Source: Candidatus Saganbacteria bacterium (GTDB lineage Bacteria; Margulisbacteria; WOR-1; JAKLHX01). From it: DNA of 64,000 nucleotides. The notes beneath the pieces are model-generated. The model saw nothing but the letters and a program-made list of their open reading frames with translations, did not search any database and was not told the origin of the DNA. Shown piece by piece: positions 620 through 28,670 of this stretch. The stretch spans positions 89,254 to 153,253 of the forward strand of contig JAPLKZ010000013.1 of NCBI GenBank assembly GCA_026387835.1. Direction: 5' to 3'. The position numbers were made by a program, and so were the translations under genes. Positions within the stretch are counted from its first letter, which is position 1. Every line of letters starts with the position of its first letter.

Positions 620-1771
620 GTGAAAAAACGCATCGCAGTACTGGGTTCAACAGGATCTATCGGAAAGCAGGTACTGGAAGCAGTATCTGCCTTTCCTTCT
701 TTATTTACCATAAACGGGCTTGCCACTAAAGGTTATCTCGATATTTTCAAAAAGCAGATAAAAGAATTTAAACCAAAGCATGCTATTGTCAACGATGAGA
801 AAGGATTGATAAAAATTGCTACAGATCCCGGCACGGATATCGTAGTGATGTCGATCGTCGGGACAGCGGGACTTCCGGCAACCATAGCCGCAATAAAAAA
901 AGGAAAGACGATCCTTCTTGCAAGCAAAGAAATACTTGTTGCTGCCGGGGATATTGTGATGCCTCTGGCAAAGAAGTACAGAGCTAAGATTCTTCCTCTG
1001 GATAGCGAGCACAGCGCGGTATTTCAGTGTCTTGGAGGAAAATCCGAAATCCGAAGCACGAAATCCCCCTCGACTTCGCTCGGGGCAAGCGAAAAAAATT
1101 CAAAATTCAAAATTCAAAACAACAGAATAAAAAAAATAATCCTCACTGCATCAGGCGGGCCGTTCAGGGCATATTCAAAAGCCCAACTGAAAAAAGTGAC
1201 CGCAAAACAGGCCCTGGCGCATCCTACATGGAAGATGGGGCCGAAAATAACGATAGATTCTGCTACGCTGATGAACAAAGGACTTGAGGTCATTGAAGCG
1301 CATCATCTTTTCGGGGTTCCTTATGACAAGATCGAGGTCGTCGTTCATCCGCAGAGCATAATCCATTCGATGGTGGAATTCACCGACGGCTCTATTCTTG
1401 CTCAGATGGGAGCCCCTGATATGAGGACTCCGATACAGTATGCGCTTCATTATCCTGACAGGGCACCGAAGAGCTTTGAGACCATCGATATTTCAAAAGC
1501 CGGCCAATTAACATTTGAAAAACCGGACGCGGATAGGTTTCCGTGTCTAAAGATTGCATATCAAGCGGGAAAAACAGGCGGGACCATGCCGGCCGTGATG
1601 TCCGCGGCGAACGATACTGCGGTCGAGATGTTCCTTAAAGGCAAGATCAGGTTCACGGATATTCCGAAGATAGTTTTATCGGTAATGAAAAAGCATGAGT
1701 TTATCAGAAAACCTTCACTTGCTCAGATACTCAAAGCGGAGAAATGGGCGAGAACTGAAGCGGGTGTATAA
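620..1771 (+). CDS. dxr: 1-deoxy-D-xylulose 5-phosphate reductoisomerase
   Basis: GTG start; N-terminal LGSTGSIG NADPH motif, LPLDSEHSA, ILTASGGPF, HPTWKMG, HPQSIIHSMVEF; carries a low-complexity loop insertion at 1040-1125. Confidence 0.9.
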   Translation: MKKRIAVLGSTGSIGKQVLEAVSAFPSLFTINGLATKGYLDIFKKQIKEFKPKHAIVNDEKGLIKIATDPGTDIVVMSIVGTAGLPATIAAIKKGKTILLASKEILVAAGDIVMPLAKKYRAKILPLDSEHSAVFQCLGGKSEIRSTKSPSTSLGASEKNSKFKIQNNRIKKIILTASGGPFRAYSKAQLKKVTAKQALAHPTWKMGPKITIDSATLMNKGLEVIEAHHLFGVPYDKIEVVVHPQSIIHSMVEFTDGSILAQMGAPDMRTPIQYALHYPDRAPKSFETIDISKAGQLTFEKPDADRFPCLKIAYQAGKTGGTMPAVMSAANDTAVEMFLKGKIRFTDIPKIVLSVMKKHEFIRKPSLAQILKAEKWARTEAGV

Positions 1772-1778
1772 TATACCT

Positions 1779-3479
1779 ATGGACAAAGGACAATTAGAAG
1801 TATTGCGCCATTCCACCTCCCACATAATGGCGATGGCGGTAAAGGAACTTTTTCCGGAAGCAAAGCTGGCTATAGGCCCCGCGATAGAAGAAGGTTTTTA
1901 TTATGATTTTGAGATCCCCAGCGTACTTACACCGGAAGACCTCAAGAAGATCGAAGACAAGATGAAAGAAATAATCAAAAGGGACATTAAATTCGAGCGG
2001 ATCGAGATGGACAAGGGAAAAGCGATAAAAGAGATGGAAAAACTCGGGGAAAAATATAAAGTAGAGCTTTTAAAAGAAATTGAAGGTGACAAGGTTACTT
2101 TTTATAGGAATGCGGGCTTTACAGATCTTTGCAGAGGGCCGCATATCGAATCTACGGGAAAAGCAAAAGCTTTCAAGCTGCTCAAACTTGCAGGAGCATA
2201 CTGGAGAGGAAGCGAAAAGAATAAAATGCTCCAGAGGATTTACGGGACATCTTTTGACACGGAAAAAGAACTTGAAGATCATATTAAAAGGATGGAAGAA
2301 GCCGAGAAAAGAGACCACAGGCGTCTCGGAAAAGAGCTTGATCTTTTTAATATCTACCATGAAGAAGCGGGAGCCGGACTTGTGTTTTATCATCCGAAAG
2401 GCGCAGTCTTAAGGGGGGTGATAGAGGATTACCTGAAAGCAGAGCACAGAAAACGCGGCTACCAGACGGTCATCATCCCTCATATTGCGAAAATGGATCT
2501 CTGGCAGACATCAGGCCACGCGGATTATTACAAAGACAACATGTATTTCATGGATATCGACGAACAAAAGTATGTGCTGAAACCGATGAACTGCCCGGGA
2601 CATATTTTGATATACAAAAGGAAACTGAACAGCTACCGTGACCTGCCGGTAAGGTTTTTCGAACTTGGGACAGTATACAGGCATGAAAGGTCCGGCGTGC
2701 TCCACGGACTTCTAAGGGTCCGCGGTTTCACGCAGGATGACGCGCATATCTTCTGCAGGCCGGACCAGCTGCAGGATGAGATCAAAAAAGTGATCGACTT
2801 TGCTTTTGACATGCTTAGGAAGTTCGGTTTCGAGGAGTTCGAAGTCTATCTTTCCACAAGGCCGGAAGGATCGGTCGGTTCCGACGACAACTGGAACCAC
2901 GCGACTGCCGCCCTTGAAGAAGCGTTGAAAAGCAAAAAAATAAAGTATGAGGTCGATCCCGGTGCTGGAGTTTTTTACGGACCGAAGATCGATGTTAAGC
3001 TGAAAGACGCGATAGGCCGCGCGTGGCAGGGGCCGACCATCCAGGTGGACTTCAACCTTCCCGAAAGGTTCGACCTTTCATATATAGGCGAGGACGGGGC
3101 AAAACACCGGCCGGTCATGATCCATAGAGTAGTGTTAGGTAGCATGGAACGCTTTATCGGGGCTTTGACCGAACATTATGCCGGAGCATTCCCGTTCTGG
3201 CTAGCTCCGGTCCAAGTCATCATTCTCCCGATATCGGACAGGCATATCAATTATGCTGAAGAGGTTATCAGGAAATTAGGCGATCAGGATATCAGGGCTG
3301 AACTTGACGCTAGAAGAGAGAAGATAGGACTAAAAATCAGAGAAGCCCAGCTACAGAAGGTCCCGTACATGCTCGTGATAGGCGACAAGGAAGTCGAAGC
3401 AAAGACTGTTGCTGTCCGCTCCAGGGAAAAAGGCGACCTGGGCGCAAAACCCCTGGAAGAGTTCATCCGCTCGATATAA
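1779..3479 (+). CDS. thrS: threonyl-tRNA synthetase lacking the N-terminal TGS domain
   Basis: ATG 1779 directly after dxr stop; RHSTSHIMA editing-domain motif, class II catalytic core and anticodon-binding domain; the upstream ORF extension from 1695 overlaps dxr and was not used. Confidence 0.9.
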   Translation: MDKGQLEVLRHSTSHIMAMAVKELFPEAKLAIGPAIEEGFYYDFEIPSVLTPEDLKKIEDKMKEIIKRDIKFERIEMDKGKAIKEMEKLGEKYKVELLKEIEGDKVTFYRNAGFTDLCRGPHIESTGKAKAFKLLKLAGAYWRGSEKNKMLQRIYGTSFDTEKELEDHIKRMEEAEKRDHRRLGKELDLFNIYHEEAGAGLVFYHPKGAVLRGVIEDYLKAEHRKRGYQTVIIPHIAKMDLWQTSGHADYYKDNMYFMDIDEQKYVLKPMNCPGHILIYKRKLNSYRDLPVRFFELGTVYRHERSGVLHGLLRVRGFTQDDAHIFCRPDQLQDEIKKVIDFAFDMLRKFGFEEFEVYLSTRPEGSVGSDDNWNHATAALEEALKSKKIKYEVDPGAGVFYGPKIDVKLKDAIGRAWQGPTIQVDFNLPERFDLSYIGEDGAKHRPVMIHRVVLGSMERFIGALTEHYAGAFPFWLAPVQVIILPISDRHINYAEEVIRKLGDQDIRAELDARREKIGLKIREAQLQKVPYMLVIGDKEVEAKTVAVRSREKGDLGAKPLEEFIRSI

Positions 3480-3514
3480 TTTACTGCCGGAACAATTCAT
3501 TTTCAGTTATTTTC

Positions 3515-3558
3515 AAAATAAGTGAAATTTATCCATGAAATCTACGATACTCTAATAG
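3515..3558 (+). promoter_or_regulatory. conserved upstream element AAAAT-N-AGTGAAATT-N15-CGATAC-N2-TAATAG (copy 1 of 3)
   Basis: Same spaced architecture recurs at 11263-11307 and 28626-28670, each upstream of an ORF start. Confidence 0.4.
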
Positions 3559-3577
3559 AACGACTTAAGGAGAAAAA

Positions 3578-4216
3578 ATGACACAACAAATGAGGATCGA
3601 ACGCAGTTTAATACTTCGCCCGATCGCGATGACGCTGACAAGGATGATAATGGGACAGCCCAAAACGCTCGGTAGGAAATGGTTCGAAGGTGTCGGTGAG
3701 GGTCATGTGGCGACAGGCACCACAGGCGGCCGCACTACTTTTGATCTTCCGTTGCTGTTCAAGCCCGATACACCCTTAAAAGATGTAAAACCGGCAGTCT
3801 CAGGACTGTGCTTTGACCAGGCATCAAAACTTCTGAACAGAGGAAGAGCTGTTTTTACCGCGAGAGGAAATTACACGCAGGCAGCAATGGATACATACAG
3901 GGCGGAGTTCCTTGCACTTCCGCATGAGGGATCTGACGAAAGGCTTTTTGCGCTGTTCATGATGATGGCCGCATTCCCGTTCACACTAGATAATATGATT
4001 GCAGAAACAGGTTCTAATGTCATGATCGGAACGATAAGACCACTGGAAGGCCCGAGGGTAGTTCTTGATTTTGAAAGGCACAAAGGGAAAGTCGATGTGC
4101 AATCCGTTGCAAACATGTTCCTTGCGCACTTGAATATCATCTCAGGCATCGAGCCTAAACTCGTAGAAAGAACGGATGGCGATCCTTTGCTTAGACTTGT
4201 TTTTCCGAAAGAATAG
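3578..4216 (+). CDS. hypothetical protein (212 aa), no recognised domain
   Basis: ORF with RBS aaggag 8 nt upstream of ATG and a promoter-like element at 3515-3558. Confidence 0.5.
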   Translation: MTQQMRIERSLILRPIAMTLTRMIMGQPKTLGRKWFEGVGEGHVATGTTGGRTTFDLPLLFKPDTPLKDVKPAVSGLCFDQASKLLNRGRAVFTARGNYTQAAMDTYRAEFLALPHEGSDERLFALFMMMAAFPFTLDNMIAETGSNVMIGTIRPLEGPRVVLDFERHKGKVDVQSVANMFLAHLNIISGIEPKLVERTDGDPLLRLVFPKE

Positions 4217-4230
4217 GGCAGAGCTACTGT

Positions 4231-4330
4231 TTTATTACGATATTAATTAATCTTCTGTTTGCAAAGATTATCTTTACGATCTCTTTGTTTTCAATGTTCT
4301 GTTTGATTTTTTCCGACATGAGGGCTTTTT
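4231..4330 (-). pseudogene. diverged duplicate of the leuS 3-prime terminus (orphan fragment)
   Basis: Reverse-complement translation gives ...[29 protein letters not shown], versus true LeuS C-terminus ...[28 protein letters not shown] at 5164-5268; about 80 percent DNA identity over about 85 bp. Confidence 0.75.
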
Positions 4331-4379
4331 TTACTGAAATTCTCCATTATTTTAACGATATATAAATAGAGGGCAAAAA

Positions 4380-5162
4380 ATGGGCGAGATCAACAGAACA
4401 GAGACTAAACAAAACGTTGCAGCGCAGGCAGGAAAAACAAACGAAAGAACAATTAACCTGCCCGATGAAAAAAGCAGGAGTTCGATGTCCGGGCCGGTCA
4501 TCGATGACGGACTGGACAGGTTCGACCGCGACATCTGGAGTAAGGCCCACGGCTGGGCAAACGGAGCCCCGTTCAATAACGGGTGGAGATCGGACCATGT
4601 GGCGTTCGAGAACGGCAGGATGGTTCTGACGCTCGACAACACCGCGAGTTCAGGAAAACCGTACACTTCCGGTGAATACAGGACAAAAGACTTTTACGGA
4701 TACGGCACGCTTGAGGCAAGCATCAAAGCGGCTGCGGGCGAAGGCATAATGGGGGGGTCATTGTTCTTCTGCACCGGCCCTTACGACAATAACCCGTGGG
4801 ACGAGATAGACATCGAGATCATCAAAGGGAAAATGCAGGTCAATTATATTACTAACGGTAACGGGAACAACGAAAGAACGATCGAGCTTGGATTTGATCC
4901 TTCAAAAGCTTTTCACACGTATAAAATAGAATGGCGGCCTGACATGATCATCTGGTCGGTCGACGAAAAAGAGGTGCACAGAGAGAACGGTTCCCGCAGT
5001 CCTCTTCCGAAGACCCCCGGAAGGATCATCGCTAATTTGTGGACAGGTAAAGATGTTGACGGTTGGCTGGGGAAGTTTGAATACAGATCCCCGTTGAGAG
5101 CCGAATATGACTGGATAAAATACACGCCTTTTAAAGACAAGACGTCCGGCTGCAATAAATAG
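4380..5162 (+). CDS. glycoside hydrolase family 16-like (beta-glucanase/laminarinase type), no signal peptide seen
   Basis: WDEIDIEI catalytic-type motif and jelly-roll-like context; sits between the two leuS 3-prime copies. Confidence 0.65.
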   Translation: MGEINRTETKQNVAAQAGKTNERTINLPDEKSRSSMSGPVIDDGLDRFDRDIWSKAHGWANGAPFNNGWRSDHVAFENGRMVLTLDNTASSGKPYTSGEYRTKDFYGYGTLEASIKAAAGEGIMGGSLFFCTGPYDNNPWDEIDIEIIKGKMQVNYITNGNGNNERTIELGFDPSKAFHTYKIEWRPDMIIWSVDEKEVHRENGSRSPLPKTPGRIIANLWTGKDVDGWLGKFEYRSPLRAEYDWIKYTPFKDKTSGCNK

Positions 5163-5163
5163 T

Positions 5164-7584
5164 TTATTTTACGACTATATTTATCAGTCTTCTGTTTGCG
5201 AAGATTATCTTCACGATCTCTTTATCCCCGATATTCTGTTTGATCTTTTCCAGTGCTAAGGCTTTTTCTCTTGCTTCTTTTTCGCTTATATCAGCCGGAA
5301 CGGTCATCTTGTCGCGCAGCTTGCCGTTCACCTGAATCGGGATCTCGATCTCTGTATCTTTGGCAAGAGTACTGTCAAAAGACGGCCATGCCTGATCAGA
5401 TATGCTGCCTTTTCCCCCTGCAACACTCCAGAGCTCTTCGGCGATATGAGGAGCGAAAGGGGAAAGAAGAAGGATCAGTTTCTGTGCAGCCTCCGGGCTA
5501 AGTTCCTGTCCCTGTAAAGTATTTGACAGCTCCATTATCTTTGCGATCGCGGTGTTGAACGAGAATTTCTCTATGTCTTCGGTCACGCATTTGATGGTTT
5601 TATGGAGTTTTTGGACAGCTTCTTTGTCTGCTGCCGGCAGGACATTTCCTGCATTCTTGTTTTGCACAAGTTTCCAGATCCTGTTAAGGAACCTGTAGCA
5701 GCCTTCCACCCCGGCGTCGCTCCATTCAAGTTCCCTTTCAGGCGGTGAAGCAAATAATATGAATAGTCTTGCCGTGTCGGCCCCGTATCTTTCGATTATA
5801 TAGTCAGGGTCTATTACGTTGCCTTTTGACTTGCTCATCTTTGCTCCGTCTTTTACGACCATGCCTTGAGTCAGAAGATTTTTGAACGGTTCATCTACCG
5901 GTACGAGTTTCAGGTCAAACAGGACTTTAGTAAAGAACCGTGAATAGAGAAGATGCAGTATCGCGTGTTCTATTCCACCGATATATTGATCGACAGGGAA
6001 CCAGTATTTCAGGTCATCAGAGTTGAAAGGCTTGCCGGTCTCTTTCGGGTTCACGTACCTGAAGAAATACCATGAGGAGCAGTTGAAAGTGTCCAGAGTG
6101 TCCGTTTCTCTTTTTCCCGGTCCGCCGCACTTCGGGCATTTTGTGTTGACAAAATCTTTGACTTTAGAAAGAGGGGATCCTCCTTCACCTGTGAATTTAA
6201 CTTCGTACGGAAGTTTAACCGGCAAGTCTTTCTCGGGAACAGGGACTGCTCCGCATTTTTTGCAATATACAATTGGTATCGGGGCTCCCCAATACCTCTG
6301 CCGTGAAATCAGCCAGTCCCGCATCTTGAAGTTGACTTCCCTTTTTCCGCTGCCATTATCTATAAGCCAGTCGGTTATTGCTTTTATCGCATCGTTGCTT
6401 TTTAGCCCGTTGAACCGGTCGGAATTTACCATGATGCCTTCATCAACAAAAGCGCATTCCATATCGTTAAAGGGCGCACGACCGTGCGCCCCTACAGGGG
6501 CAATTACTTCTTTAATTGGCAGGTTGAATGTTTTTGCGAACTCAAAATCTCTCTGATCATGTGCGGGCACCGCCATCACTGCTCCTGTCCCGTACTCCAT
6601 CAGAACATAATCTGATGTCCATACGGGGATCTTTTCCCCTGTCGCCGGATTGACCGCGTATGCACCGGTGAACTCCCCTGTCTTTTCCGTGGCTTTTTCG
6701 CGTGACGAAGCGGACTCTTTCTTAACGCTATCTATATATGTAAGGACGGCTTTTTCCTGCTTTGTCCCTTTTGAAAGCTCTTTTGTGTATGGATGTTCGG
6801 GAGCAAGAGTCATATATGTCACCCCGAACAGAGTGTCGGGCCTTGTGGTGAACACCTCCAACTCTTTGTCCGAGCCGTCGATCTTGAATTTGATGCTCAT
6901 TCCTTCTGACCTGCCGATCCAGTTGCGCTGCATGATCTTGACGCTGTCAGGCCAGCCAGCAAGTTTTTCGATGTCATCGAGAAGCCTTTGAGCGTATGCT
7001 GTTATTTTGAAGAACCATTGCTCCAGGTCCTTTTCGCCGACAACGGACTCACACCTCCAGCATTTGCCGTCCTTGACCTGCTCGTTGGCCAGTACGGTCT
7101 CGCATTTAGGGCACCAGTTGACGAGAGATTTCTTCTTGTAGGCGAGCCCCGCTTCGTAGAACTTGATGAATATCCACTGCGTCCATTTATAATAATCTTC
7201 TTTGCTGGTAGTGACCTCCCTGCTCCAGTCATAAGAAAGCCCGAGCCGCTTGAGCTGGGACTTCATCTGAATTATGCACTTTTCCGTCCAGTCCTTTGGA
7301 TGCGAATTGTTCTTTATCGCGGCGTTCTCAGCGGGCATGCCGAAAGCATCCCAGCCGATCGGGTGAAGCACGTTGAACCCTTTCATCTTTTTATAGCGCG
7401 CGATGATGTCGCCGATGGCATAATTGCGCACGTGGCCCATGTGGATCGCGCCGGAAGGATAGGGGAACATAACAAGGTCGTAAAATTTAGGTTTCCCTGA
7501 CTTGTTCGGCACCTCGAATGATCTGTTCTTTTCCCAGAAGGACTGCCATCTGGATTCGATATCTTTGTGGTTATAATCGGGCAT
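5164..7584 (-). CDS. leuS: leucyl-tRNA synthetase
   Basis: 806 aa; class I HIGH-type motif (HMGHVRNY), KMSKSKGN, editing domain present. Confidence 0.95.
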
Positions 7585-8809: not shown

Positions 8810-10261
8810 CTAAACGGTCCTTCTAAACTTATCCAGCCCCTGGATCTTAAGCAAATTGTTGACCATTCCCACGGCATCCTTTTTCAGGTCCGATACGGAA
8901 GATGCCAATTCGATGTAATCTTTTTTGTAGATCAGATCAGAGCCGGGGATGGAGGCAAAAACATTATAATAATCCTTGGTGACGGGGTTGTTCTTTACCG
9001 TTTCGGCGAAGTGTCTTATTGAAGCCGCGGAATCGCCCGCTTCATGGTACACTTCGCTGATCGCATACCTCGGCTCCTTGATCTCCATATTTATCATCAC
9101 GCGCATACCGGGCACACAAACGCGGACAGCCGGGATGTCCAATTTGAGATGGGTCTTGTCGATGACAACGGTCTTGTATCCGGATTTTTCCAGTATCCCC
9201 ATAATATAGAGTATCTCTTCCTTTATATCAGGCTTGCACGCGCTGGGGACCTCATCCATCGTGACGCTTTTTTTACTTTTCAGGAGCATCTCCGTGTTAT
9301 ATAAAGGAAGGAAACCCGTATGTTTTTTAGGCAGCGCGGACATGACCTCTTTCCAGTTGACATTCAGCTCTTCCTGAGAAACGCACATAAGGGAAAAACC
9401 CTCAAAATATTCTGCCAGGGCCCTGATCAGCGCTTTTTGCGGGTCCGTGCTAGCCCCCTGGCCGACCCCCTGATAAGTAAGTTTGTCTTTGTCCTGTTCG
9501 CGGATGCCGTAAGCTATGAAGGTCGGCACTTTGAAATCAAAAGAGATGTCCTTTATTGTGAATTTGATCCCGTTCTTCTGAGAATTTTCCAGAACTCTTG
9601 TCACAAGAAGATTATTGATGCTTTCAAGCTTCAGGTCATTTCCCGGTTCCATGTCCATGAAAAGACGGCAGATGTTCTCCCTTTCTATGACCTCGCAAAG
9701 GGCCTGCAGTATAGCCTCTTCCATCGTGTTGCCGGCTGCGAGCCCGTTGGACCCGACCACCATGTTATGCCAGTTCACCGGATAATAGAACGGTTTCCGG
9801 TCGTTAAGGCACGTGCCCAGGACCCATTTAAGAGGTATGTCCTTTATTTCCCTGAGCAGTTCATCGCGGTCTTTCAGGTCGATGAAATTGCAGAGGAAAT
9901 ATGATTCGTCAACTGTCTGGATATCCCCCTTTTTGATCTCGTTAAAGCTTTTCAGGCAATATCCCTCATAATGTTCATAATCAAAATGCAGCCACGAATA
10001 CCGTTCCGCGAATTCCATGACCGCGCTGGCCTTTGATTGTTCCGGAGTGAGGCCCTTGCCGCTGGTCTTAAGTTTGTCGCTTATGCTTGAAAAAGAATAA
10101 GCGCCTTCAATGGCGTCTTTCCTGGGTTCGATCCTGAAACTTGACAGGTCAAGCATTGTTTCCAGATGTTTTAAGGCGTTTTCTATTGTCGAGGAAGGGT
10201 CCGTGACCTTGTCCTGGTCAAGCGTGTATTTTTTCGGGCAACTTTTAAGTTCGATCACCAT
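8810..10261 (-). CDS. YcaO-domain protein (stand-alone)
   Basis: 483 aa; YcaO-like motifs (GKGLTPEQSKASAVMEFAERYSW, GSNGLAAGNTMEEAILQALCEVIERE); no TfuA or precursor gene adjacent. Confidence 0.65.
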   Translation of the reverse strand: MVIELKSCPKKYTLDQDKVTDPSSTIENALKHLETMLDLSSFRIEPRKDAIEGAYSFSSISDKLKTSGKGLTPEQSKASAVMEFAERYSWLHFDYEHYEGYCLKSFNEIKKGDIQTVDESYFLCNFIDLKDRDELLREIKDIPLKWVLGTCLNDRKPFYYPVNWHNMVVGSNGLAAGNTMEEAILQALCEVIERENICRLFMDMEPGNDLKLESINNLLVTRVLENSQKNGIKFTIKDISFDFKVPTFIAYGIREQDKDKLTYQGVGQGASTDPQKALIRALAEYFEGFSLMCVSQEELNVNWKEVMSALPKKHTGFLPLYNTEMLLKSKKSVTMDEVPSACKPDIKEEILYIMGILEKSGYKTVVIDKTHLKLDIPAVRVCVPGMRVMINMEIKEPRYAISEVYHEAGDSAASIRHFAETVKNNPVTKDYYNVFASIPGSDLIYKKDYIELASSVSDLKKDAVGMVNNLLKIQGLDKFRRTV

Positions 10262-10305: not shown

Positions 10306-11010
10306 TCAAACGGTCCCGGATAGATAAGCTTTCCTTGTCTTTTCAGGGAACTTTTCTATCGCGTACCTCAGCATGGTTCGAGGCATCTTCTTGTAATGCC
10401 CCTTTAAAAAATCCTCTTCTGTCTTTTGTGAGCATCTTTTTCCCGTCTCACGAAGCATCCAGCCGACGGCTTTGTGTATGAGGTCGTGCCCGTCATTTAA
10501 AAGGACCTTTGCGACCTTCAGGGTTTCTTTCGGATCGCCTCTTTTAATATAGTTAAAGGTCGATAATATCGAGATCCTTCTTTCCCAGAGAGAGCTTGAT
10601 CGCGCAAATTTATACAGGAGGCTTTTATCCTTGTCAGAAAGATATTCACCTACTATCTGTTCCGCAGTAAGGTCTATCAGGTCCCAGTTGTTGATGAACC
10701 TCGTGTTATTAATGTATATATTAAATATCTTCTGCTTTTCGGCCTTGTCTGCCTTGCTATACTTCAAAACCAATATCAAAAGAGTGGTTAACCTTTCCTC
10801 ATGATATTTGGAATGAAGAAGCTTTATGCAGTCGGGCAACGTGATATCTCTGAACTTTTTTACAATGTTTCTGACATCCGGCACAACGATACCAAGGAAA
10901 ACGTCTCCTTCCCCGTACTGCCCGGGCCCGGTCTTGAAGAACCCTGCCAGTATCTTTGCCTTTTGCGGGGAAGCGCAGTCGCGAAGGTCTTTTTTCAGTT
11001 TTGAAAGCAT
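10306..11010 (-). CDS. DNA alkylation repair protein, AlkD-like HEAT-repeat glycosylase family
   Basis: 235 aa from ATG at 11010; the longer ORF to 11382 would overlap tRNA-Ser so was trimmed; family-typical helical repeat sequence. Confidence 0.65.
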   Translation of the reverse strand: MLSKLKKDLRDCASPQKAKILAGFFKTGPGQYGEGDVFLGIVVPDVRNIVKKFRDITLPDCIKLLHSKYHEERLTTLLILVLKYSKADKAEKQKIFNIYINNTRFINNWDLIDLTAEQIVGEYLSDKDKSLLYKFARSSSLWERRISILSTFNYIKRGDPKETLKVAKVLLNDGHDLIHKAVGWMLRETGKRCSQKTEEDFLKGHYKKMPRTMLRYAIEKFPEKTRKAYLSGTV

Positions 11011-11030
11011 GATGAAATTATTGTTAAAAT

Positions 11031-11117
11031 CGGAAGGAGCAGGATTTGAACCTGCGGTGCGCTTGCACGCACAGTAGTTTTCAAGACTACCGCCATAAAC
11101 CACTCGGCCATCCTTCC
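11031..11117 (-). tRNA. tRNA-Ser (anticodon TGA), type II with long variable arm
   Basis: GGAAGGATGGCCGAGTGG...CTTGAAA anticodon loop...TTCAAATCC T-loop; 7-bp acceptor stem GGAAGGA/TCCTTCC; no encoded CCA. Confidence 0.85.
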
Positions 11118-11262
11118 ATGTCCCGCTCGCTTGCCCCGAGCCTGTCGAGGGGGCCACCTCTCCGTAAAATATTGTATCACGGCTGTAGGTGCGTAGGATA
11201 TCAGCACGACCTCCGGCAAATGACCAAATAATCCCGTTCCCGCGACATTTTTTGGAAAAATC

Positions 11263-11307
11263 AAAATTGAGTGAAATTTCAAAAAATACCTGTCGAGAAG
11301 AATATGG
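11263..11307 (+). promoter_or_regulatory. conserved upstream element (copy 2 of 3), AAAATTGAGTGAAATT-N15-CGAGAA-N2-ATATGG
   Basis: Same spacing as copies at 3515 and 28626; about 135 nt upstream of ATG 11442. Confidence 0.35.
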
Positions 11308-11441
11308 CAAGAAATAACAGGCATGTAAAAAATACATCGCCGGTGAACAAAGAAAAAACTGAAAGGAGGACTGGAAATACAAAAAAATTGAAGTTTCATA
11401 AATGTCCGGGGGCGAAAATATTTAAAGTAAGGAGATAACAG

Positions 11442-14285: not shown

Positions 14286-15881
14286 ATGAACATATTACCC
14301 TTTTTAAAGAAACCCTCGACGGGTTCGGCATATGAAGACGAACGAAATATCTATGTCGGCAACCTGAGCCTGGATGACCGGCCGGCAAGCGATCTGAAAG
14401 ACCTGAGCGGCTTTTTCAAGAGAATACTTCACAAGAGGATAGACAGGTTCTGTCCCGACAAAAGAAAGGTCATCACCAGATTTCTCGAAATAAGTGACGC
14501 GGCCCATCTGGGATCCATCATTAAAAGGGCTCTCGATCTTGATAAGGGCCGGATATCGGCAAAACTCCGCGAGGTCATGGCCGAATTTTCCAAAAGGCAT
14601 AGATCCATCGAGAATATATTTATGCGGAATTACCTGAAAGTCGCGGCTGCCGCCGAGTCCATATCACCCTCCCCGTCAAAAGAAAAAAAGCTTCTCATAG
14701 GATCCCTTTTCACTATGGAATATTCTTATGAATCAACAAGCCTGTTCAATCCTTCTGTTGTGCTGTATCCAAAGCAGAACGGCCTTAAAAAGGGGCAGGT
14801 CAGGGTCGTTTTCTGTTTCAGGGCCACAGGGGAGGGGCATATCTCATCGATCATCTTCAGGAGCGCGGTGATAGATAAGAACAATGACATCTATCTTGAG
14901 CCGATAAGCCGCTTTGCCTCGACCCCCGCAGTTAACATGGACCCTACATACGAGAAGAAGATCTTCGCTGAAAAATTAAAAGACATAGGTTCGCTGGACG
15001 AAACAGCGGCGGCGATACTCGGCCGTCTCCCGGATAATTTTTCGTATAACGAACTTATGAACGAGATAAAAGACTTTCTCCCTTCAGGATCAAATGACGT
15101 CGGCATGGCATCTAAGCTTTCTCCGGTCAAGATGAAGTGGCTTGCCGACTGTAATTATGAGGTCTCATTTCCGCCTGATCAGCTGATATCCGAGAGAGTT
15201 TTATTCCCTGTCTCACCTACCGAAAGCAACGGAATGGAGGATGCCAGGTTCGTGCGTTTTACGCGGGACAGCGGAGATTTTATTTATTACGCGACGTATA
15301 CGGCATATAACGGCATCTCTATTCTGCCGCAGATACTTGAGACAAAAGATTTTCATCATTTCAAGATGTCAACACTGAACGGGCCTTTTGCAAAAGACAA
15401 AGGCATGGCGCTTTTTCCCAGAAAAATAAACGGCAGATACGCGATGATATCAAGGTCCGACGGTGAAAATCTTTTTCTGATGTATTCCGATAATCTGAAT
15501 TTCTGGTACGAAGCAGTAAAGATGCAGGAACCGAGCCGGACATGGGAGATGGTCAAGATAGGCAACTGCGGCTCTCCGATAGAGACAAAGGAAGGCTGGC
15601 TGCTTTTGACGCATGGCATCGGTCCGATGAGAAAATACTGCATAGGGATAGAACTTCTTGACCTGAACGACCCGTCAAAGGTGATCGCGAAGATGGAAGA
15701 GCCCCTTTTAAGCCCCACGGAAGAAGAGCGGGACGGTTACGTGCCGAATGTCGTATATAGCTGCGGTTCTATCCTTATCCGCGATAAGCTGATCATCCCG
15801 TATGCCGAATCCGATTCGGTCTCAAGCATAGCGGTGATAAGGCTTAATGAACTTCTTGATAAACTCTTGAAAAAGCGCTGA
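14286..15881 (+). CDS. GH130-like glycosidase/phosphorylase domain protein with about 280 aa N-terminal extension
   Basis: C-terminal half resembles GH130 beta-propeller (GMEDARFVRF..., YYATYTAYNG, repeated blade-like segments); N-terminal region unrecognised. Confidence 0.55.
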   Translation: MNILPFLKKPSTGSAYEDERNIYVGNLSLDDRPASDLKDLSGFFKRILHKRIDRFCPDKRKVITRFLEISDAAHLGSIIKRALDLDKGRISAKLREVMAEFSKRHRSIENIFMRNYLKVAAAAESISPSPSKEKKLLIGSLFTMEYSYESTSLFNPSVVLYPKQNGLKKGQVRVVFCFRATGEGHISSIIFRSAVIDKNNDIYLEPISRFASTPAVNMDPTYEKKIFAEKLKDIGSLDETAAAILGRLPDNFSYNELMNEIKDFLPSGSNDVGMASKLSPVKMKWLADCNYEVSFPPDQLISERVLFPVSPTESNGMEDARFVRFTRDSGDFIYYATYTAYNGISILPQILETKDFHHFKMSTLNGPFAKDKGMALFPRKINGRYAMISRSDGENLFLMYSDNLNFWYEAVKMQEPSRTWEMVKIGNCGSPIETKEGWLLLTHGIGPMRKYCIGIELLDLNDPSKVIAKMEEPLLSPTEEERDGYVPNVVYSCGSILIRDKLIIPYAESDSVSSIAVIRLNELLDKLLKKR

Positions 15882-15959
15882 CTGCTATTAACTTCCACGT
15901 TTCGCTATTGAACACCTTACTGGTGTTGAAAAAATCAACAGTATTGATGGGATAAGTTG

Positions 15960-16048
15960 TCACGAATTGTCTCACGAATGAGTTTATCGCGAATAACGCC
16001 AATAAGAATTTTGCTAATTGTCGCGAATTATCACTAATCACACGAATC
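15960..16048 (+). repeat. left terminal inverted repeat and array of five CACGAAT/CGCGAAT heptamers
   Basis: TCACGAATTGTCTCACGAAT at 15960-15979 matches the reverse complement of 16523-16546 apart from a 4-nt indel; heptamers start at 15961, 15974, 15988, 16022, 16042. Confidence 0.65.
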
Positions 16049-16093
16049 GGGCGGGGAAATTGCTGGTAGGTCCATCATAGGAGGAAATTAATT

Positions 16094-16474
16094 ATGGGCG
16101 CAAAACTTATCCATGCCGAATTGAGCTATAAGTTGGTCGGGGTTCTTTACAAAGTATATAACGAGCTTGGCGGCGGGTATCAGGAAAAAATATATCAATC
16201 TGCGGTCAGAAAAGAGTTGAAAAAAAGCGGGATAAATTTTACCGAACAATTGGGAATAGATCTGTTATATGACGACAAAAAAATAGGCAGATATTTTCTT
16301 GATTTTGTCATTGAGAACAAAATCGTGCTGGAGCTCAAGGTTGTCCCAAGATTTTCACCCCGCGACATAATGCAGGTGCTCGGTTATCTTAAACAGACCG
16401 GACTGGAGCTCGGCATTCTTGCCAGCATGAACAGAAATGGCATTATTATGAAACGTATACTGAAAGGAAATTAG
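16094..16474 (+). CDS. GxxExxY family protein (PD-(D/E)XK-like small protein)
   Basis: 126 aa; family-typical N-terminus ...HAELSYKLVGVLYKVYNELGGGYQEKIYQ...; RBS aggagg. Confidence 0.75.
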   Translation: MGAKLIHAELSYKLVGVLYKVYNELGGGYQEKIYQSAVRKELKKSGINFTEQLGIDLLYDDKKIGRYFLDFVIENKIVLELKVVPRFSPRDIMQVLGYLKQTGLELGILASMNRNGIIMKRILKGN

Positions 16475-16478
16475 CGTT

Positions 16479-16556
16479 ATTCGTGTAAATTCGAGTTAAT
16501 AAGTGAGATCTCTATTCGTGTGATTCGTGATACAGACAATTCGTGAAAGATTCGTG
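16479..16556 (+). repeat. right terminal inverted repeat and array of ATTCGTG heptamers (reverse complement of left array)
   Basis: ATTCGTG at 16479, 16514, 16523, 16539, 16550 plus a degenerate copy at 16489. Confidence 0.65.
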
Positions 16557-16627
16557 ATAAATAGGCCTACACACAATTCTCATAATCTGCACTTAACTCA
16601 TCCTCCATTGCGAAAGTGAGAAGAACT

Positions 16628-18871
16628 TTACTCCAAGTTCTCCAGCTCGTATTCTTCCATCATCGCAAGTAGTGCAAGAAGGAAAGATACCGTGCTCTCG
16701 GCTCCCTGGTTCATGCTGGCGCCGCCCTGCATAAGGCCGTCGGAGCATCCTTTTGAGGCCATATCATACATGGGAACTCCCAGATCGTTCTCTCCAAGGA
16801 ACCAGTCGAACGCCTGTTTCATCTTCTTCAGGTATCCGGTGTCATGCGTCACCCTGTAGGCCGATTGCAGCGCCATTACCATCGAAGCGGCATCTATGGA
16901 CTGCTGGTCAAACTGGGCTTTTTTGCCGCCTTTGGTGAACCAGCCGTTACTTCCCACGACTGAAAGGATGCCGTCCTTAAAAACGATCTTTTCCAAAAAG
17001 GCCAGAGATTCTTTCGCGGTCTTCAGCAGTTTTTCGTCTTTAAGGATACTATAAGCATTAAACAGCGACATGGGCATGATCGCGTTATCATAGCAAAGGA
17101 TATCCTCGAACCATTTCCACTGATCGCCCGCATGCTTCTGATATGCACCCTCCAGGTCATTTATTATTTTTTTCAACAGCTCATATGCCTGTTCGTCCGA
17201 ATTAAATATCCTCAGGTAGCACACTATCCCCAGGGCAGCAAAGGCTTTGCCTCTAAGATTAAGCTTAGGGATAATATTGAACGATTTCTTGATCATTTCC
17301 GCGGCAAAAGACCTGTAGGCCTCGTTCTTTGTCCTCCAGATAAGAAACCCAAGCGACCAGATCGCCCTGCCGTTACTGTCGTCCGAGCCCTTTTCCTCCA
17401 GATGGTTCCTTTTATAATCTATAAAATTGGCAAAGCCGCCGTCTTCTTTCTGCATGTACTTGACAAAACTGCAATAGATGGAAAGCAGGTCCTCGGCTTC
17501 TTTGTCCTCCAGAAGAGATGCCGCCCACGCGGCAAGCATTATCGCTCTTGCGTTATCGTCAAGGCAGTAGCCGGTGCTCCTGTCAGGCACGAGATATTTT
17601 GCGTGCTGGATCATCCCCGTATCATCGGTCAGCCTTTTTATGTGGGTCAGGTCAAAGGCCGGCAATCCCATCACCGACGTTGACTTGGGGTAATGCGAAA
17701 AGACCGGTTTCTTTTCGGAGGAGACTTTTGAAAGGAGCTCCGCGTATTTTGCTGATATCTTCTTCCATGTCATCTGCCTTCCGGACTCATAAGCTTTTTT
17801 TTGCAGGGCCTTGAGTTTTTTTTCGTTCATTAAGAGGTCCCTGAGTATCTCCGAGAGTTTTTCTGAGTCGTTAAAATCAAACAAATATCCCCTGCCGCCT
17901 GACAGCATCTCTTCGGCGTACCAGTAGGGGGTGGAGATTATCGCATTGCCGGCGCCGATCGCGTACGAAAGAGTGCCGCTGACGACCTGAGCTTTGTTCA
18001 TATAAGGAGTGATATAGATGTCAGATGCCGAAAGCCAAGCGTAAAGCTCTTCTATTGTCACGAACCTGTCATCGAAAATGACATAAGGCCTGAGGTTCAG
18101 CTTGCCGACAAGCTTGATAAGGCTTTCCCTGTATCTCTCTCCCTGTTCTTTTTGGACATGAGGATGGGTCTTTCCCAGTATCACGTAAGTGAGGTCGGGA
18201 AAATCTTTTATCACGGAAGGCAGTGACTTTATGACCGTCTCTATCCCCTTGTTGGGGGCTAAAAGGCCGAACGTCAGTATCATCTTTTTGCCTTCAAGCT
18301 TGAAGCGTTTTTTATAATGTGAGGAGTCAAGAGAAGTGAAATCCGGCGTCCCGTGAAGTATCAGCTCTATTTTTTCGCCCGGCGCGTTATAGACATCTTT
18401 CAGCAGTTCAATGCTTTTTCTGCTCATGACGACGATATTGTTGGAGCGCTGGATGATCTCCGACATTATCCTCTTCTGGTTGGCGTTGGGATTTTGAAGC
18501 ACGGTATGAAGTGTCGTGATAAGCGGCACGTTAAGCCTTGACAGAAGAGAAAGTATATATATTCCATCCCATCCGCCGAATATGCCGAATTCATGCTGCA
18601 GGCAGACAACCTGGGCGTTGCTGGTGTTTATTATGTTGGCGGCATCAAGATAATCCTTCTGCCTGTTCTGGTTGATAGAAAAGATCACTTCTTTGGGATA
18701 ATCGTAGATCCGGCCCTCGTCATTTAAAGCGATGGCAAAGATGCTTGACTTATCGGACAGCCTTTCGGTGACGGCGTTGCACAGGTCGCTGGTGAAGGTG
18801 GCGATGCCGCATATGCGCGGAAGATAGTTCCCGATGAACGCGACATTAAGTTTTTTCTTGCAGTGGAACAT
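16628..18871 (-). CDS. GT4-family glycosyltransferase fused to a C-terminal domain of unknown function (about 350 aa)
   Basis: N-terminal half has group-1 glycosyltransferase features; ATG at 18871 chosen, an in-frame TTG at 18901 would add 10 aa. Confidence 0.7.
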   Translation of the reverse strand: MFHCKKKLNVAFIGNYLPRICGIATFTSDLCNAVTERLSDKSSIFAIALNDEGRIYDYPKEVIFSINQNRQKDYLDAANIINTSNAQVVCLQHEFGIFGGWDGIYILSLLSRLNVPLITTLHTVLQNPNANQKRIMSEIIQRSNNIVVMSRKSIELLKDVYNAPGEKIELILHGTPDFTSLDSSHYKKRFKLEGKKMILTFGLLAPNKGIETVIKSLPSVIKDFPDLTYVILGKTHPHVQKEQGERYRESLIKLVGKLNLRPYVIFDDRFVTIEELYAWLSASDIYITPYMNKAQVVSGTLSYAIGAGNAIISTPYWYAEEMLSGGRGYLFDFNDSEKLSEILRDLLMNEKKLKALQKKAYESGRQMTWKKISAKYAELLSKVSSEKKPVFSHYPKSTSVMGLPAFDLTHIKRLTDDTGMIQHAKYLVPDRSTGYCLDDNARAIMLAAWAASLLEDKEAEDLLSIYCSFVKYMQKEDGGFANFIDYKRNHLEEKGSDDSNGRAIWSLGFLIWRTKNEAYRSFAAEMIKKSFNIIPKLNLRGKAFAALGIVCYLRIFNSDEQAYELLKKIINDLEGAYQKHAGDQWKWFEDILCYDNAIMPMSLFNAYSILKDEKLLKTAKESLAFLEKIVFKDGILSVVGSNGWFTKGGKKAQFDQQSIDAASMVMALQSAYRVTHDTGYLKKMKQAFDWFLGENDLGVPMYDMASKGCSDGLMQGGASMNQGAESTVSFLLALLAMMEEYELENLE

Positions 18872-18973
18872 GATCTTGGCCTTTTGTATCCTTGAATCCA
18901 ATTATATACTAATAATGGGAGGATAAACTCAAAACTCCGGTTTTGGCTATGTTATAATTATTTTTGTATACCT

Positions 18974-28625: not shown

Positions 28626-28670
28626 AAAATTCAGTGAAATTCCCAATATTTCCATTCGATACATATATAG
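28626..28670 (+). promoter_or_regulatory. conserved upstream element (copy 3 of 3), AAAATTCAGTGAAATT-N15-CGATAC-N2-ATATAG
   Basis: Same architecture as 3515-3558; ends 26 nt upstream of ATG 28697. Confidence 0.4.

Follow-up and report, generated by a model that had tools for sequence, protein, structure and literature searches.

An orphaned second leuS 3′ end in a Candidatus Saganbacteria genome as a probable scar of recombination between alleles of a variable gene slot

Homology-facilitated illegitimate recombination (HFIR) is known from natural transformation and conjugation (de Vries & Wackernagel 2002 and Prudhomme et al. 2002, as cited in PMC5361080). It has been proposed as the origin of displaced 3′ ends in type VI secretion system (T6SS) and rearrangement hotspot (Rhs) loci (PMC5361080), and structures like the one described in this article are regarded as HFIR products (PMC3240628). 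The structure lies in a 64-kb stretch of a metagenome-assembled genome (MAG) of Candidatus Saganbacteria, herein called the window, to which all coordinates refer unless preceded by an L-number; L-numbers denote contigs or loci of relatives. In this window, the 3′ end of leuS, the gene encoding leucyl-tRNA synthetase, is present twice: once as the functional end of the intact gene and once as a diverged orphan on the far side of a gene for a GH16 glycoside hydrolase. Leaving aside which DNA came in, the orphan is probably a scar that dates from the recombination of two alleles at a variable one-gene slot next to leuS.

The locus resembles HFIR products in having a homology anchor in a conserved gene on one side, a microhomology of a few bases on the other side, a diverged donor, and no recombinase. 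It differs in that the process is reconstructed from a scar that occurs naturally in a phylum without cultivated members and in that the net result is a tandem addition that keeps both cargo genes, as opposed to an insertion–deletion. C-terminal displacement and orphan arrays in effector loci of Rhs, contact-dependent inhibition (CDI), and T6SS systems (PMC5361080, PMC3150448) are likewise similar, with a displaced 3′ end that is kept together with its former neighbor and with recurrence at one locus across related genomes. However, the end displaced here belongs to a housekeeping leucyl-tRNA synthetase and not to a polymorphic toxin, and the cargo consists of GH16 and an ORFan on the opposite strand. 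Neither toxin nor immunity domains were found in this cargo with Pfam and PADLOC. Islands and integrative elements at the 3′ ends of tRNA or protein genes share the direct 3′-end repeats around inserted DNA and the intact target gene. They are set apart by an integrase and an identical attachment (att) core, both of which are missing here, whereas the flanked gene of this locus appears to be an ancestral resident.

In a repeat search, the two leuS ends form one two-copy family of direct repeats (4230–4330 and 5167–5267) with a length of 101 nt, an identity of 78% without gaps, and a spacing of 937 nt. A blastn comparison of the copies gives 82% identity over the best 85 nt (E 1e-17). The repeat comprises the last ~34 codons of leuS. 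On one side, the two copies are homologous up to the stop codon and, on the other side, up to a T-run at 4330/5267; the longest identical runs between them measure ~11–12 nt. No third copy of the leuS end was found in the 64 kb by tblastn. From left to right, the gene order is thrS, ORF212, orphan leuS end, GH16, and leuS, with the following features:

1695–3479, plus strand: thrS, conserved left flank of the slot, with a TAA stop at 3477–3479 and the Pfam domains tRNA-synt_2b, HGTP_anticodon, and tRNA_SAD; syntenic with L092
3578–4216, plus strand: ORF212, a 212-aa ORFan open reading frame (ORF) that occupies the first of two tandem units
4224–4330, minus strand: orphan leuS 3′ end, ~34 codons followed by one additional codon and a stop, called as an ORF at 4224–4319
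4380–5162, plus strand: GH16 glycoside hydrolase gene, 260 aa, catalytic domain only, matching PF00722 (E 4e-35) over profile positions 4–173 of 175
5164–7584, minus strand: leuS, intact, 806 aa, conserved right flank of the slot, with Pfam editing, catalytic, and anticodon-binding domains
5167–5267, minus strand: functional leuS 3′ end, the second repeat copy, which ends in NIVVK-stop as in all close relatives

The stop codon of the orphan lies 7 nt from that of ORF212, and its tail reads VIKQ-stop compared with VVK-stop in leuS. GH16 is the sole gene between the repeat copies, and its stop is separated from the leuS stop by 1 nt. The first-pass annotation of this DNA had described a leuS 3′ end that occurs twice, with the diverged copy orphaned, and only a GH16-like gene in between. 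Both observations are confirmed, the former by the repeat search, blastn, and the assemblies described below, and the latter by the 260-aa ORF and its PF00722 match. Known RNA families were not found in the region 3400–5400. For a role of the orphan as a terminator or promoter, no terminator-like site was found, and promoter-like matches reach only a chance-level consensus.

As the sequence stems from a MAG and two alleles could co-occur in one sample, the arrangement might be an assembly or binning artifact that fuses two strain haplotypes. However, about ten independent per-run Logan assemblies (ERR15302166, 175, 182, 191, 197, 205, 206, and 223 among them) agree with the window at 100% identity over the junction as well as both repeat copies. 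A k-mer collapse or a mis-joining of the copies is ruled out because they are only 78% alike and have no long k-mers in common; nor are there common k-mers that would link leuS at position −104 with the start of the intergenic region. The repeat is real, and the probability of such an artifact is negligible.

The substitution pattern between the two leuS ends carries most of the information on the origin of the orphan. It was evaluated over the 28 unambiguously aligned codons, which contain 15 nucleotide differences, 12 of them synonymous and 3 non-synonymous, with 11 of the 15 at third codon positions. The proportion of synonymous differences (pS) is 0.76 and thus saturated, and the proportion of non-synonymous differences (pN) is 0.04. 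Random substitution would be expected to cause ~10 amino acid changes instead of the three seen (P < 5e-5). If the orphan had evolved neutrally after a duplication, 68% of the changes are predicted to be non-synonymous, and the observed count is incompatible with this model (P = 1.8e-4). Because the differences are nearly all synonymous, both copies appear to have evolved inside working leuS genes. At the amino acid level, the identity of the orphan is 82% with the true end and does not exceed 72% with the end of any relative. Both copies share the signature ANRRLINIV, which is present in none of the 44 closest LeuS C termini inspected. Each copy has the other, and not a relative, as its closest match, and the two would therefore represent alleles of two lineages that split after the divergence of L092. 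Judged from these comparisons, the orphan derives from the working leuS of a diverged donor lineage and was joined later, which agrees with the diverged source of the added DNA in HFIR. The orphan is altered only by the loss of its original stop, which suggests that the joining is recent.

Two other origins of the orphan can be weighed against the same data. If intergenic region, gene, and leuS end had been duplicated in tandem and in place within a single genome, and one of the two gene copies had then been replaced or had decayed, the two units would be expected to resemble each other in their upstream elements and leuS ends, as they do. The rejection of neutral decay speaks against such a duplication, as do the concentration of differences at third positions, the few amino acid changes, and the dissimilarity of ORF212 and GH16 in every reading frame; this origin is very unlikely. 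Alternatively, the LeuS C terminus could have given rise to a small gene with a function of its own or to some other element under selection; in favor of this, the intact reading frame of the orphan, an ATG at the homology boundary, and the strong synonymous excess can be put forward. However, there is no Shine–Dalgarno sequence at a usable distance, with GGAG located 23–26 nt upstream, and an intact frame is expected in ~50–64% of cases anyway. Furthermore, relatives contain no such ORF, and the comparable orphans of L089 and L103 are frameshifted. A function of the orphan is hence highly improbable.

The slot becomes visible in the comparison with relatives. In a search of 5.8e9 proteins, the LeuS of the window has a match of 100% identity in an NCBI protein of Candidatus Saganbacteria, followed by a next nearest sequence with 78% and a further group with 69–75% identity. 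Among the GTDB genome representatives, the best LeuS identity is 58%. A parental allele or an empty site was found neither in the GTDB genome scan nor among these 5.8e9 proteins, in which LeuS identities reach the said 58% and 78%, and in JGI metagenomes, the shared LeuS tail was not found by two scans with degenerate DNA patterns. In the LeuS tree, the window pairs as sister with P0002, which is carried on the L092 contig. The gene order of L092 (and also L093) is ilvC-dxr-thrS-GH16-leuS-trpB, which equals the order of the window minus ORF212 and the orphan; accordingly, positions 3465–4504 of the window have no counterpart in L092. GH16 is convergent on leuS in L095 too and likewise in L096, there with two small ORFs in between. 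None of L092–L100 contains a second leuS end. Other occupants of the same place are a GAF-ANTAR gene in L094, L100, and L102, a GH8 gene on the contig of P0011, and a 436-aa ORF of no assigned family in L103; ahead of gdh in L098, L099, and L101, the slot is empty. From this synteny, the site just downstream of leuS appears as a variable one-gene slot, so that either one of these genes or nothing is found at the same place across relatives. GH16 is the commonest occupant and probably the ancestral one. What is unique to the window is ORF212 together with the orphan leuS end.

These relatives bear on the idea of the first-pass annotation that the locus is the footprint of foreign DNA which had brought its own leuS end, with GH16 as the new arrival. 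The notion of a scar left by recombination between lineages is supported, as the 12 synonymous versus 3 non-synonymous differences indicate. GH16 as the newcomer is not supported, since it adjoins leuS in L092/L093, L095, and L096 without any repeat, shares a conserved upstream element with its orthologs, and is accompanied by no integrase or transposase detectable by Pfam among the ORFs of window 1–24 kb. Where an empty site had been anticipated in relatives, GH16 is present at the leuS end and a second leuS end is absent. The composition between the copies is typical of the window and not foreign-looking, with a GH16 codon score of 0.285 compared with 0.30 ± 0.11 for window genes and a G+C content at third codon positions (GC3) of 0.61 compared with 0.56 ± 0.05. 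GH16 and P0122, its syntenic counterpart in L092, are 70% identical and have a 3-residue deletion in common. Ahead of the GH16 start, 45 nt (from 4335) can be aligned with the sequences that precede GH16 in L092, L095, and L096, and this aligned block contains TGAAAT(T)...ACGATA(T/A)AT...GAGGG. By these comparisons, GH16 appears to be a resident of the slot.

A related explanation is the site-specific integration of a small GH16 island at an attachment site in the leuS 3′ end, whereby the island supplies a replacement end. It would account for direct repeats around a single gene and for one of the copies completing leuS. However, a recombinase gene is absent between the repeats and in window 1–24 kb, and the repeats are just 78% alike with an identical core no longer than ~12 nt. 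In addition, GH16 occupies the same place in the repeat-free relatives named above, and the scars found in L103, L096, and L089 differ in length and in the genes involved. The island reading is already largely refuted and scarcely credible.

The catalytic EIDIE motif of the window GH16 is intact, and E142, D144, and E146 are invariant alignment columns. The protein resembles bacterial GH16 endo-β-1,3-1,4-glucanases of the lichenase type in its PF00722 domain, the EIDIE motif, and a 40–70% identity to annotated β-glucanases, and it is a predicted glucanase. It differs in lacking both a lipoprotein signal peptide and a ~140-aa C-terminal domain, which are present in every Saganbacteria ortholog aligned. 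The orthologs begin with a hydrophobic stretch ending in ...GC, whereas the window protein begins with MGEINRTETKQN; no hidden signal peptide was found in the other frames. The gene had been suspected to be truncated, which is correct insofar as signal peptide and C-terminal domain are missing and incorrect insofar as the catalytic domain is complete and promoter, ribosome-binding site, and start codon are present. Because promoter, ribosome-binding site, and start codon are at their usual place, the junction does not seem to have cut GH16. Because signal peptide and C-terminal domain are absent, the protein may be cytoplasmic, or the gene may be decaying and heading for loss.

Judged by the same comparisons, the true lineage-specific gene of the locus is ORF212 and not GH16. 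For ORF212, about 15 billion proteins contain no homolog. Searches of 5.8e9 clustered proteins (word-indexed) and of 1.84e9 representatives (full HMMER) returned only ORF212 itself; P0242 was considered as a relative and dismissed as a repeat artifact. ORF212 has no match in Pfam or PADLOC, nothing was found by phage/plasmid tblastn or in an IMG/VR viral-contig scan, and PHROGs contains no accepted match, one match of 0.017 having been dismissed. Its coding score is positive in its own frame only and amounts to 0.18 compared with 0.30 ± 0.11 for window genes. Its GC3 is 0.48 compared with 0.56 ± 0.05, a deviation of ~1–1.5 standard deviations. The AlphaFold single-sequence model is unusable, with a predicted local distance difference test score of 44. 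The possibility that ORF212 is a diverged or frameshifted GH16 copy was rejected, as tblastn, short-word blastn, and the GH16 profile reveal no likeness in six frames. Composition was also considered as a guide to the direction of transfer and dropped as non-decisive: GH16 is typical, and ORF212 deviates only to the small extent given.

The junction between the orphan and the intergenic region upstream of GH16 was read by comparing 4318–4340 with 5255–5275 and 3477–3490. It involves the following elements:

3480–3486, plus strand: TTTACTG 7-mer directly after the thrS stop, which recurs at 4330–4336
3523–3549, plus strand: promoter-like element, copy 1, TGAAATT-N14-ACGATA, 5′ of ORF212
4326–4336, no strand assigned: junction, a run of 7 T (4326–4332) and then ACTG, with 0–3 nt of microhomology
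4335–4360, plus strand: promoter-like element, copy 2, TGAAATT-N13-ACGATA, 5′ of GH16 and homologous to the GH16 upstream region of relatives

The junction reads GGGC, 7 T, and ACTGAAATT. Herein, leuS contributes GGCTTTTT, and the intergenic side starts with TTTACTG. The joint lies ~104 nt inside one leuS copy, and its T-run corresponds to the illegitimate junction with 0–10 bp of microhomology that is characteristic of HFIR. The recurrence of TTTACTG would tie the junction to the bases that follow thrS, although this match is suggestive only. Behind thrS, the layout is, hence, a tandem of two units, the first with intergenic region, ORF212, and 104 nt of leuS, and the second with intergenic region, GH16, and the full leuS.

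The promoter-like element TGAAAT-N13–18-ACGATA occurs twice in the 64 kb compared with 0.09 occurrences expected, and the same element is located 5′ of GH16 in L092 and L095. As proof of homology of the two units, the shared TGAAATT-N-ACGATA element is weakened because it also precedes an unrelated gene of L092. It resembles promoters of extracytoplasmic function (ECF) sigma factors of the TGAAAC-N16-CGTA type and possibly marks the promoter of an alternative-sigma (ECF-like) regulon rather than shared ancestry. A further TGAAATT-N13–15-(A)CGATA is located at 28635–28661 of the window before one further ORF; the element is often followed by ATAGAGGG and a start codon.

The favored explanation would start with two alleles, thrS-[promoter-GH16]-leuS, which represents the ancestral order of the group, and thrS-[promoter-ORF212]-leuS, which would come from a closer but separately evolving relative. 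DNA of one lineage would have entered the other and undergone a homologous crossover in or beyond a flanking aminoacyl-tRNA synthetase gene. The other side would have been joined illegitimately at the T-run, thereby connecting a point ~104 nt into the leuS copy to the first bases past the thrS stop. Such a process would be HFIR or an equivalent unequal crossover. Its product would be thrS, ORF212 with 104 nt of leuS, and GH16 with the complete leuS, leaving leuS unharmed and the orphan as a non-functional passenger. For the direction, a piece with ORF212 and the orphan, anchored in thrS, is weakly favored as the incoming DNA. This is because the joint in the recipient would sit exactly where the thrS-side homology ends, because GH16-leuS retains the ancestral adjacency of the clade, and because ORF212 is the compositional and phylogenetic oddity. 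In this full form, with allele fusion and direction combined, the explanation is tentative and falls somewhat short of an even chance.

The mirror image is doubtful in itself and nearly as likely as the favored direction. Herein, the backbone would be thrS-ORF212-leuS, and an incoming piece with GH16 and the 3′ part of leuS would have crossed over within leuS, its far end being joined 104 nt before the old stop. The old leuS end would have been displaced together with ORF212, the working leuS end would be foreign, and leuS would be chimeric. This corresponds to the direction assumed in the first-pass annotation, without an integrase, and leads to the same final structure as the favored model. 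It matches the C-terminal displacement in Rhs, CDI, and T6SS loci, which is ascribed to HFIR (PMC5361080). As it predicts, the orphans of L103 and L089 adjoin the ancestral downstream neighbor (gdh and yitT, respectively), and throughout the clade, the cargo always keeps its place at the leuS end, the far flank being variable. On the other hand, the lineage of the window would have to lose GH16 to ORF212 and then regain GH16, of which the codon usage is native-like. Moreover, the model requires a donor piece whose end coincides exactly with the thrS stop, and it puts the recipient joint 104 nt into the homology instead of at the point where the homology ends. All of these points fall short of being decisive.

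Several points weigh against the favored fusion of slot alleles as such. Neither parental allele was found, and the databases searched contain no LeuS above 78% identity and no ORF212 homolog. The haplotype with ORF212 alone is hypothetical, and the direction of transfer is still inferred. The homologous crossover point cannot be placed, the TTTACTG match is a single 7-mer, and the promoter-like element is also located 5′ of an unrelated 314-aa ORF in L092 (L092:1429–1455). Recombination at ~80% identity is inefficient, and natural competence is not established for Saganbacteria.

Similar scars exist elsewhere. The C-terminal 35 residues of 585 ORFs from 90 loci (1.16 Mb), all picked around leuS, were sought as second copies, which yielded three cases apart from ordinary paralogs: L103, L096, and L089. 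In L103, the LeuS of which is 70% identical to that of the window, an orphan leuS end of 153 + 25 nt with 94–96% identity is present (L103:6183–6457 and L103:7885–8062). A 1-nt insertion lies in the last two codons, and the 10 substitutions upstream of it are without exception synonymous. The orphan is located behind one convergent ORF, the 436-aa ORF without a Pfam match, just before gdh. In L096, the 3′ end of GH16 is doubled over 186 nt with 83% identity (L096:7451–7636 and L096:8419–8604). The orphan GH16 end, which appears as a 55-aa ORF in the gene calls, lies directly at the leuS stop, and a 240-aa repeat-protein ORF with an internal 154-nt repeat of 100% identity lies between GH16 and this orphan end. 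L089 stems from a Prolixibacteraceae (Bacteroidota) MAG and contains a decayed, frameshifted leuS orphan ~1 kb 3′ of leuS (L089:8599–8652 and L089:9612–9665). In between, there is one convergent 188-aa ORF with a signal peptide and an outer-membrane-like character. The orphan adjoins a yitT-like gene, which directly follows leuS in L050, L056, and L075.

Including that of the window, 4/4 scars are located at the leuS 3′ junction, and within Saganbacteria, they affect three of about twelve lineages examined. The enrichment at the leuS end is only suggestive, with roughly P = 0.06 without the window and with loci that were picked around leuS. A dedicated gene-capture hotspot at the leuS 3′ junction, with an insertion mechanism that duplicates 50–280 nt of the target end, or a selection of the intact orphan as a LeuS-tail peptide, is unlikely. 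The recurrence of scars at the same slot suggests that the exchange between slot alleles is a common route in Saganbacteria.

Further features of the window lie outside of the slot. In dxr, a low-complexity stretch of ~86 nt at 1030–1115 (AAATCCGAAATCCGAAGCACGAAATCC ... AAATTCAAAATTCAAAATTCAAAA) has no aligned counterpart in the L092 ortholog, and several independent Logan contigs begin at window 1065, inside this stretch. Adjoining trpB, a stand-alone YcaO-domain protein of 483 aa is encoded at 8810–10261. At 10306–11382, a long ORF call overruns the gene of tRNA-Ser(TGA) at 11030–11118 on the same strand; the real DNA-alkylation-repair gene at this position is the 234-aa version in Logan contigs. 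Genes for GH130 and a GT4 glycosyltransferase are located further on, at 14286–18901.

For annotation, the orphan leuS end should be called neither a gene nor an att site. The locus is a footprint of gene exchange of an ordinary kind between related uncultivated bacteria and not a mobile element carrying GH16. For an uncultivated sister phylum of Cyanobacteria, it offers a dated, sequence-level snapshot of single-gene swapping beside a housekeeping gene, in which an exchange between diverged relatives would have left one imprecise junction.

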